The notes under the pieces were generated by a model. It made no database searches. It was not told the origin of the DNA and saw nothing but the letters and a program-made list of their open reading frames with translations. A stretch of DNA of 63,979 bases, the filler included, from Dugesia japonica (taxonomy: Eukaryota): the NCBI GenBank assembly GCA_001938525.1. It is 7 parts of 7 records of this genome, joined end to end, with 100 filler letters (N's around TTAATTAATTAA, not from the genome) between each part and the next. Parts side by side here need not be neighbours in the genome. Positions count along the whole stretch, not along the records: positions 29,140 to 37,427 come from MQRL01459623.1; 6 more parts are not named here. The stretch is one strand, 5' to 3'. Shown one piece after another: positions 37,101 through 37,427 of this stretch. The position numbers were made by a program, and so were the translations under genes. Each line of letters starts with the position of its first letter. Within the stretch, counting starts at the first letter, position 1.

Positions 37101-37427
37101 TCATTCGTATTGCATTTTATCAATTAAATTATATAAATCTGTAATTATGTTGTCAACATATCTATGATAATGTAAGCTCTTGAGACCAAGTATAACAACT
37201 TTTCCTGATGAAAATACATTAACACATATAAGATCATACTTTGTAAGACGTAATGCTGGAAAAAATTCCGGTTCAAACCAACATTTTGTTATCTTTACCA
37301 ATTTATACAAATTAATCGCAAGTCCTAAATTGATTACAATTGTTAACGATTGTATTCGAATGATTTTGATATTATATTGTAAGTTGTTCATTTCTATTGT
37401 TTCTTTGCATCCCATTATTTGACAGTT
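37101..37427 (-). CDS. Divergent TATA-binding-protein-like protein, 5'-truncated by contig end
   Basis: NCQIMGCK (end of TBP repeat 1), then INLYKL...WFEPEFFPALRL....VNVFSSGKVVILGLKS, matching TBP repeat 2 (YEPExFPGL...IFxSGKxVxTGAK). No intron in the visible part. Confidence 0.85.
   Translation of the reverse strand, partial: NCQIMGCKETIEMNNLQYNIKIIRIQSLTIVINLGLAINLYKLVKITKCWFEPEFFPALRLTKYDLICVNVFSSGKVVILGLKSLHYHRYVDNIITDLYNLIDKMQYE

Follow-up and report, generated by a model that had tools for sequence, protein, structure and literature searches.

A compact TBP gene fragment on a Dugesia japonica repeat contig and a candidate promoter box, YATAAAC, in related Polintons

The window is a stretch of 63,979 nucleotides of Dugesia japonica DNA made up of joined contigs. 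The contig at 29140-37427 ends within a gene for a compact TBP, and the following features were recognized on it, at its right-hand junction, and at a second copy of its terminal repeat.

37101..37427, minus strand: 3' part of a compact TBP gene (Pfam TBP, alignment with 30 relatives, residue map, translation)
37428..37527, no strand: artificial contig linker N44-TTAATTAATTAA-N44 (same pattern six times in the window)
33127..34203, plus strand: terminal repeat region of a high-copy element starting AGTAG (similarity to a second copy, depth, diverging reads)
43669..45371, plus strand: second copy of the 33127 terminal region, on another contig (similarity)
34281..34497, no strand: 31-bp tandem arrays
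34665..34940, minus strand: remnant of an acidic ORF (91 codons between stops) containing a 42-bp repeat
35103..36718, no strand: AT-rich spacer containing tandem arrays of 31-32-bp and 9-21-bp units
31964..33126, plus strand: frameshifted pPolB pseudogene, outside the terminus (Pfam DNA_pol_B_2, E = 1.3e-4)

Translation of the minus strand of 37101-37427 gave 108 open codons followed by a stop. The product matched Pfam PF00352 with an E-value of 7.9e-10 and 38.9 bits, above the curated cut-off of 22.9, and its best match among solved structures was the archaeal TBP 1mp9 (E = 4.7e-11). The fragment comprises the tail of a reduced first repeat, a short linker without helix 2, and a full C-terminal second repeat. 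Judged against the 149-residue relative P0001, about 44 N-terminal residues are absent. The gene has no 5' end because contig 29140-37427 stops at 37427, and adjacency of the DNA to the right of the linker is not implied, the window being composed of joined contigs. An earlier note on this DNA had described an intronless gene with clear TBP repeat motifs. The visible part does lack introns, and the relatives are single ORFs. The repeat motifs were borne out by the Pfam and structure matches, except that only one full repeat is present together with the tail of a shortened first one.

At 21 columns conserved in 85% of the family rows, the window copy departed from the family twice, and one of the two departures falls on the predicted DNA face. 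No departures were found in 27 of the 29 closest relatives listed, and two or more in 23 of 93 family rows. These departures hint that the window copy may be decaying. RNA reads over the gene were few, with a depth of 26/8 and 19/12 by mate direction in run X21 and below 1.3 in X20 and X24. They were mostly less than 90% alike and are therefore uninformative on the window copy; no RNA records carrying the TBP gene were listed. A poly-A loose end at 36993 lay on the wrong strand for the TBP gene and in an A-rich stretch and was taken as an artefact.

The AGTAG terminus at 33127, from which the earlier note had reasoned, proved to be a true repeat boundary. The alignment of the second copy at 43669 begins exactly at 33127, and it is also here that 50 RNA reads derived from another copy part from the contig sequence. 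Segments 33127-33411 and 33923-34203 match the second copy (43669-45371) at 72-79%, and 33127-34203 has the highest summed contig depth on the TBP contig. The region is likely a Polinton terminal inverted repeat and, as in Polintons/Mavericks, it starts with AG. Its end reads AGTAGATAG, unlike the (AGT)2 given as the end motif of vertebrate Mavericks in the accessible part of PMC8097293. Polintons are expected to be bounded by terminal inverted repeats and a 6-bp target duplication, and one end only lies in the contig. The interval from the terminus to the TBP gene holds tandem arrays and the acidic ORF remnant, as had been noted before. For this remnant no family match was obtained, and none was seen among the ORFs of the metagenome loci L001-L072 or by tblastx to any locus. 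The spacer at 35103-36718 was without an open gene of at least 80 codons; terminus and spacer together gave short AT-rich matches only to the metagenome loci, and a scan of viral contigs with the terminus pattern returned nothing.

A pPolB remnant absent from the earlier note is found directly outside the terminus. Pieces of 31964-33126, distributed over several frames, correspond to residues 70-421 of the pPolB part (598 residues) encoded at 53856-55649. Because the left pPolB matches stop at residue 421 of 598, the 33127 element would have inserted at this place, and the remnant likely represents an older Polinton that it interrupted. As it sits outside the terminus, the remnant was dropped as evidence linking the TBP gene to the element.

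Three DNA-type runs with the same organism label (X1-X3), one of which may be the source of the window, gave a summed contig depth, a measure that does not equal copy number, of more than 100,000 over the TBP gene and more than 2,500 in every bin of 33018-37427 versus 10-70 at 29694-30801. Copy number had been proposed as a check, and the depth over the gene is not that of a single-copy gene, which is thereby excluded. Placement of the gene in the 33127 element rests on the shared contig and on this continuous repetitive cover, and the window copy is likely an ageing genomic copy inside the element. It is somewhat unlikely that it is instead a displaced Polinton-derived fragment lying beside the element. 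Such a displacement would fit with the lack of any record spanning the 33127 terminus and the TBP gene among run contigs and RNA reads, with an interval that matches no known relatives, and with a contig that is a nest of repeats including the older pPolB remnant. It is opposed by the unbroken depth over 33018-37427 and by the observation, already made in the earlier note, that no opposing terminus stands between 33127 and the gene; none was seen in the contig among the 25 longest of 155 inverted pairs.

Sequence search identified 32 relatives among 33 candidates, 42-78% identical to the window protein, and a profile search added many more, 56 of them at E ≤ 1e-30. The family consists of compact TBPs, mostly of about 145-175 residues; in the ESM Atlas, only generic TBP clusters were met, with low recognition. 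A metagenome scan yielded 71 loci, from which the full-length TBPs of L067-L071 (31-33% identity) and viral L001 were left out; 66 loci were counted, with L072 entered as a miss. One or more genes of a six-member Polinton core set (pPolB, ATPase, integrase, protease, putative major capsid, and putative minor capsid) were present in 34 of the 66 loci and in 18 of the 20 that measured at least 4 kb, and all six classes occurred in L012, L027, and L079. The pPolB, ATPase, integrase, and protease of the relatives' loci are Pfam-supported; the labels capsid, "SSB-like", "DEDD", "core99", and "pX-like", given to genes without a Pfam match, follow what we take to be Polinton genes. A search by integrase only led to three further TBP-bearing elements, L079, L082, and L084. 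The ten closest relatives of the window protein came without genomic context. Scans of viral contigs with capsid and ATPase alignments found nothing, and the TBP scan of viral contigs returned L001 alone, which is a large DNA virus whose TBP is full-length. The relatives thus lie, as in Polintons/Mavericks (adintoviruses), amid genes for pPolB, A32-like ATPase, rve integrase, adenovirus-type protease, and putative capsid proteins, which agrees with the earlier assignment of the gene to a Polinton-type element. The further idea of an element with its own basal transcription factor holds at the level of the family; for the window copy, the link to 33127 is likely.

Some TBP-bearing Polintons carry accessory cargo (L012:225-722, L021:3975-4316, L028:1897-3327, and L049:6794-7759), the kinds being ubiquitin-conjugating enzyme, dual-specificity phosphatase, leucine-rich repeat, and KilA-N proteins. 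L079, L080, L082, L084, and others are Polinton contigs inside bacterial MAGs and probably represent misbinned DNA of eukaryotic elements, which may account for the prokaryote labels on such TBPs.

That TBP lies outside the standard Polinton gene set, as the earlier note had stated, agrees with the accessible part of Barreat and Katzourakis 2021 (PMC8097293), where TBP is not among the eight vertebrate Maverick core genes and the term "TBP" has 0 occurrences. In Starrett et al. 2021 (PMC8502044), a "TBP" label stands in the legend of Figure 5 without discussion, and "promoter" has 0 occurrences. Given this label, the bare observation of a TBP in Polintons is not wholly new. No published account of the compact TBP family or of the YATAAAC box described below was found within mostly open-access literature.

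Phylogeny against cellular and viral TBPs, another check that had been suggested, was performed with 57 rows. The window protein fell into a clade (99/98) with 10 TBPs of Polinton context and 7 lacking any context, and this clade was nested in another (100/100) apart from cellular and large-virus-type TBPs, where the labels "eukaryote", "archaea", and "large virus" of unnamed rows are our own reading. A quick tree of 111 rows agreed; both trees are without any TRF2/TLF row. The gene might also be a divergent host TBP paralogue (TRF/TLF) or its processed pseudogene, as a Pfam TBP match and trees without a TRF2/TLF reference would permit. This origin is extremely improbable in view of the nesting among Polinton-context proteins, the depth over the gene relative to unique DNA, and a helix-2 deletion common to the Polinton relatives, segment 125-159 having 22 residues in the window protein versus 35 in the canonical one.

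L084 and L068 took positions at the family base on long branches. L049 and L082 keep helix 2, and in L084 the TBP has its full length and a first repeat that is mostly canonical. The helix-2-keeping members and full-length L084 suggest that the mini-TBP may have arisen by stepwise reduction. The L084 TBP possibly represents an earlier stage or a separate capture. L084 (11568-12140) is a Polinton in which a full-length near-canonical TBP accompanies boxes of the TATAAG/TATAAA type before virion genes. The divergent full-length TBPs of L067-L071, on short AT-rich contigs, share I194R with the family and are placed beside the Polinton clade in the tree (98/84, on a long branch).

A predicted model of P0001, a full-length relative of 149 residues, had a pLDDT of 96. 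Its best matches were TBPs, and it aligned with yeast TBP over 148 of 149 residues (Z 13.2, rmsd 2.9). As Foldseek also matched TBP, a two-repeat saddle fold is predicted for P0001; the window copy itself is incomplete. For the residue map, yeast numbering was used with what we take to be the relevant TBP positions, and all 26 match the canonical-looking P0121. Positions 191, 194, 203, and 205 came from the accessible part of PMC1636458; there, the altered-specificity mutant TBPm3 is described as changed at three sites, 194, 203, and 205, and the N-terminal TBP repeat is placed opposite the 3' half of the box. In 93 family rows, the changed sites were V122R (91), T124M (93), N159S (90), I194R (82), V203C (85), and L205N (93), with V71N also in the range of 82-93 rows. 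Kept sites were E186 (91), E188 (91), F116 (91), F190 (92), and F207 (93), and P191 and N69 were likewise kept in most rows. The first stirrup is lost together with F99, the position of which is occupied by P in 87 of 93 rows, although the mapping is less sure there. The marks of canonical TBP/TRF, namely four intercalating phenylalanines, a hydrophobic DNA face, and helix 2, are accordingly not those of the family. These comparisons showed that the family TBP keeps the predicted fold and the TFIIB-binding glutamates and has a DNA face that is conserved but changed and polar.

Compared with cellular TBPs (eukaryotic TBP/TRF and archaeal TBP; PF00352), the mini-TBP thus shares the predicted saddle fold, F116, F190, P191, F207, N69, and E186/E188. 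It differs in its size of about 150 residues, the deleted first stirrup, the apparent loss of F99, the deletion of helix 2 in the window's subgroup, polar or charged residues at 71, 122, 159, 194, and 205, and in being encoded by a mobile element.

The DNA upstream of genes in the TBP-bearing loci was then considered for a matching box. Only ORFs with a Met and 100 nt of upstream DNA were used, and near-duplicates were removed before the count. YATAAAC was first seen and then counted on the same data, and the eight "virion-set" classes were chosen after that look; with this reservation, it was located in sense orientation upstream of 50 of 65 packaging/virion-set genes and of 0 in antisense, with a shuffle mean of 2.5. 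For four core classes alone, the count was 27 of 34. Fifteen of the 65 virion-set genes were without the box. An unbiased ranking of 6-mers put ATAAAC first. Among other genes, YATAAAC preceded 5 of 10 integrase, 2 of 15 SSB-like, and 1 of 3 pPolB genes, and it preceded only 1 of 37 TBP genes. A canonical TATA match was present before 21 of the 37 TBP genes. For the 19 TBP genes with TATA 25-60 nt upstream, 16 TCA matches were seen 28-30 nt after TATA; after YATAAAC, no sharp peak of a TCA initiator appeared. YATAAA was followed by C at 58 of 72 virion-set sites versus 1 of 19 TBP-gene sites. A non-canonical TATA-like box stands before most late genes, "late" being assumed from gene type, and is almost absent before the gene of the factor itself.

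Thirty-six of 60 YATAAAC sites were 30-45 nt before the ATG. Thirty-seven of the 60 lie outside a conserved upstream gene, and the remainder fall in two frames. Near gene ends, codon choice favours YATAAAC (26 of 32 versus 21 of 56). The placement of the sites and the codon choice together imply that constraint acts on the DNA.

In loci found by integrase and analyzed with 100-nt windows, YATAAAC preceded 13 of 15 genes in L079-L082, TBP being seen in L079 and L082 only. The pooled controls (L084 and L076-L078) gave 0 of 17. Of these, L084 contributed 0 of 7 and had canonical-like boxes before 6 of its 7 genes in DNA of 25% GC; L076-L078 contributed 0 of 10 and are incomplete representatives of another Polinton class in which no TBP was seen. 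L075 was omitted as a near copy of L076. The box preceded 0 of 2 genes in L083 and 0 of 5 genes checked in the window's other Polinton (46595-55650). No TBP match was obtained in control L073, the one of five control records that was searched whole, but L073 is a fragment. Controls without a TBP are scarce, incomplete, and drawn from a different Polinton class, and the co-occurrence of box and TBP is not independent of ancestry because both are traits of one lineage. The window holds no virion gene of the TBP's own element.

On these sequence comparisons, the family mini-TBP is probably the element's own late-promoter factor, which would read YATAAAC before packaging and putative particle genes. 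The mini-TBP gene would have an ordinary promoter and be transcribed early by host TBP and Pol II. The mini-TBP would then bind YATAAAC before the packaging and particle genes, where its retained acidic stirrup, E186/E188, would bring in TFIIB and Pol II of the host. Helix 2 is gripped by TFIIA, Brf1, TAF1, and Mot1, and a mini-TBP without it could escape regulators that hold on to this surface. Such a mechanism would likely amount to a herpesvirus-like early-to-late switch using host Pol II. A displaced window fragment, as considered above, is compatible with this mechanism at the family level.

It is unlikely that the mini-TBP acts rather as a decoy, tying up host TFIIB or blocking host promoters, with YATAAAC as a weak TATA variant for host TBP. 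TATAAAC differs by one base from a canonical TATA box and may be bound by host TBP; moreover, the TFIIB-binding glutamates are retained while F99 appears lost. A pure decoy would not need the changed DNA face, which is nearly invariant. It would also leave aside that C at position 7 is typical of the virion-gene boxes and avoided in the TBP-gene box, and that L084, with a near-canonical TBP, has canonical-like boxes (6 of 7, in a single AT-rich element).

The assignment of the box to the mini-TBP also has to be weighed against a late promoter for some other factor, be it a further protein of the element, a TRF of the host, or a large DNA virus acting as helper, with the TBP merely travelling along. 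Virophages share late promoters with their helper viruses, the TBP-bearing elements carry further conserved small genes of unknown role, and the co-occurrence is confounded by ancestry as stated. Even so, this explanation is decidedly unlikely, since it is simpler to pair a TBP-fold protein whose DNA face has been re-specified with the TATA-like box that lies at TATA distance in the same elements, and the box type shifts with the TBP type in L084.

The late-promoter function proposed for the mini-TBP has a counterpart in herpesviruses. According to the accessible part of PMC12529657, the TBP mimics of beta- and gammaherpesviruses (KSHV ORF24, EBV BcRF1) have a polar DNA face and are paired with a TATTWAA late box. 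The mini-TBP resembles them in its virus-type TBP fold, polar DNA face, and non-canonical TATA-like box, its function being predicted only. KSHV ORF24 is described in the same part of that source as a large multidomain protein of a six-protein complex that pre-assembles with Pol II and is without the TFIIB-binding acidic residues. In contrast, the Polinton protein consists of a mini-TBP alone and retains these residues, and the neighbour genes scanned gave no Pfam matches to herpesvirus-type pre-initiation partners. By analogy, the mini-TBP may work like the herpesvirus late-promoter system without being a member of it.

A viral TBP fold is also shared with the TBPs of large DNA viruses (Nucleocytoviricota; Heterosigma akashiwo virus, asfarvirus B263R), which were the top matches among predicted viral structures at 7-19% identity. 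Unlike the Polinton proteins, however, the sampled large-virus-type TBPs form a separate branch. Large DNA viruses mostly encode their own RNA polymerase; none was seen in the TBP-bearing Polintons.

The timing of capsid gene expression in Polintons is poorly known, and virus-like activity of animal Polintons is debated. We consider the chances evenly balanced that a broad animal-type Polinton lineage carries the smallest known viral early-to-late switch, in which one re-specified TBP of 150 residues would read YATAAAC and use host TFIIB/Pol II without host-repressor surfaces, protein and box co-evolving. A self-encoded TBP with its cognate box offers a small testable model consisting of one protein and one 7-bp site. 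If the proposal is true, the mini-TBP and YATAAAC would form an orthogonal TBP-promoter pair of natural origin. The system would parallel late transcription in herpesviruses by convergence, with a much simpler factor, and would show, as an experiment of nature, which TBP surfaces can be dispensed with.

Other mobile elements were noticed elsewhere in the window. A separate contig at 46595-55650 is a largely intact Polinton segment of another type with pPolB, protease, a putative minor capsid gene, and long ORFs, in which no TBP was seen. An N-terminal pPolB fragment of a further Polinton lies at the window end (63277-63979). Facing AGTAG starts at 12567 (plus strand) and 15866 (minus strand), each followed by a C-run, enclose 3.3 kb with tandem repeats; 12567-15866 is possibly a non-autonomous Polinton-like element, and its arms are not closely alike. 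Remnants of LTR retrotransposons with zinc knuckle and RT-RNase H were found at 59019-61863.
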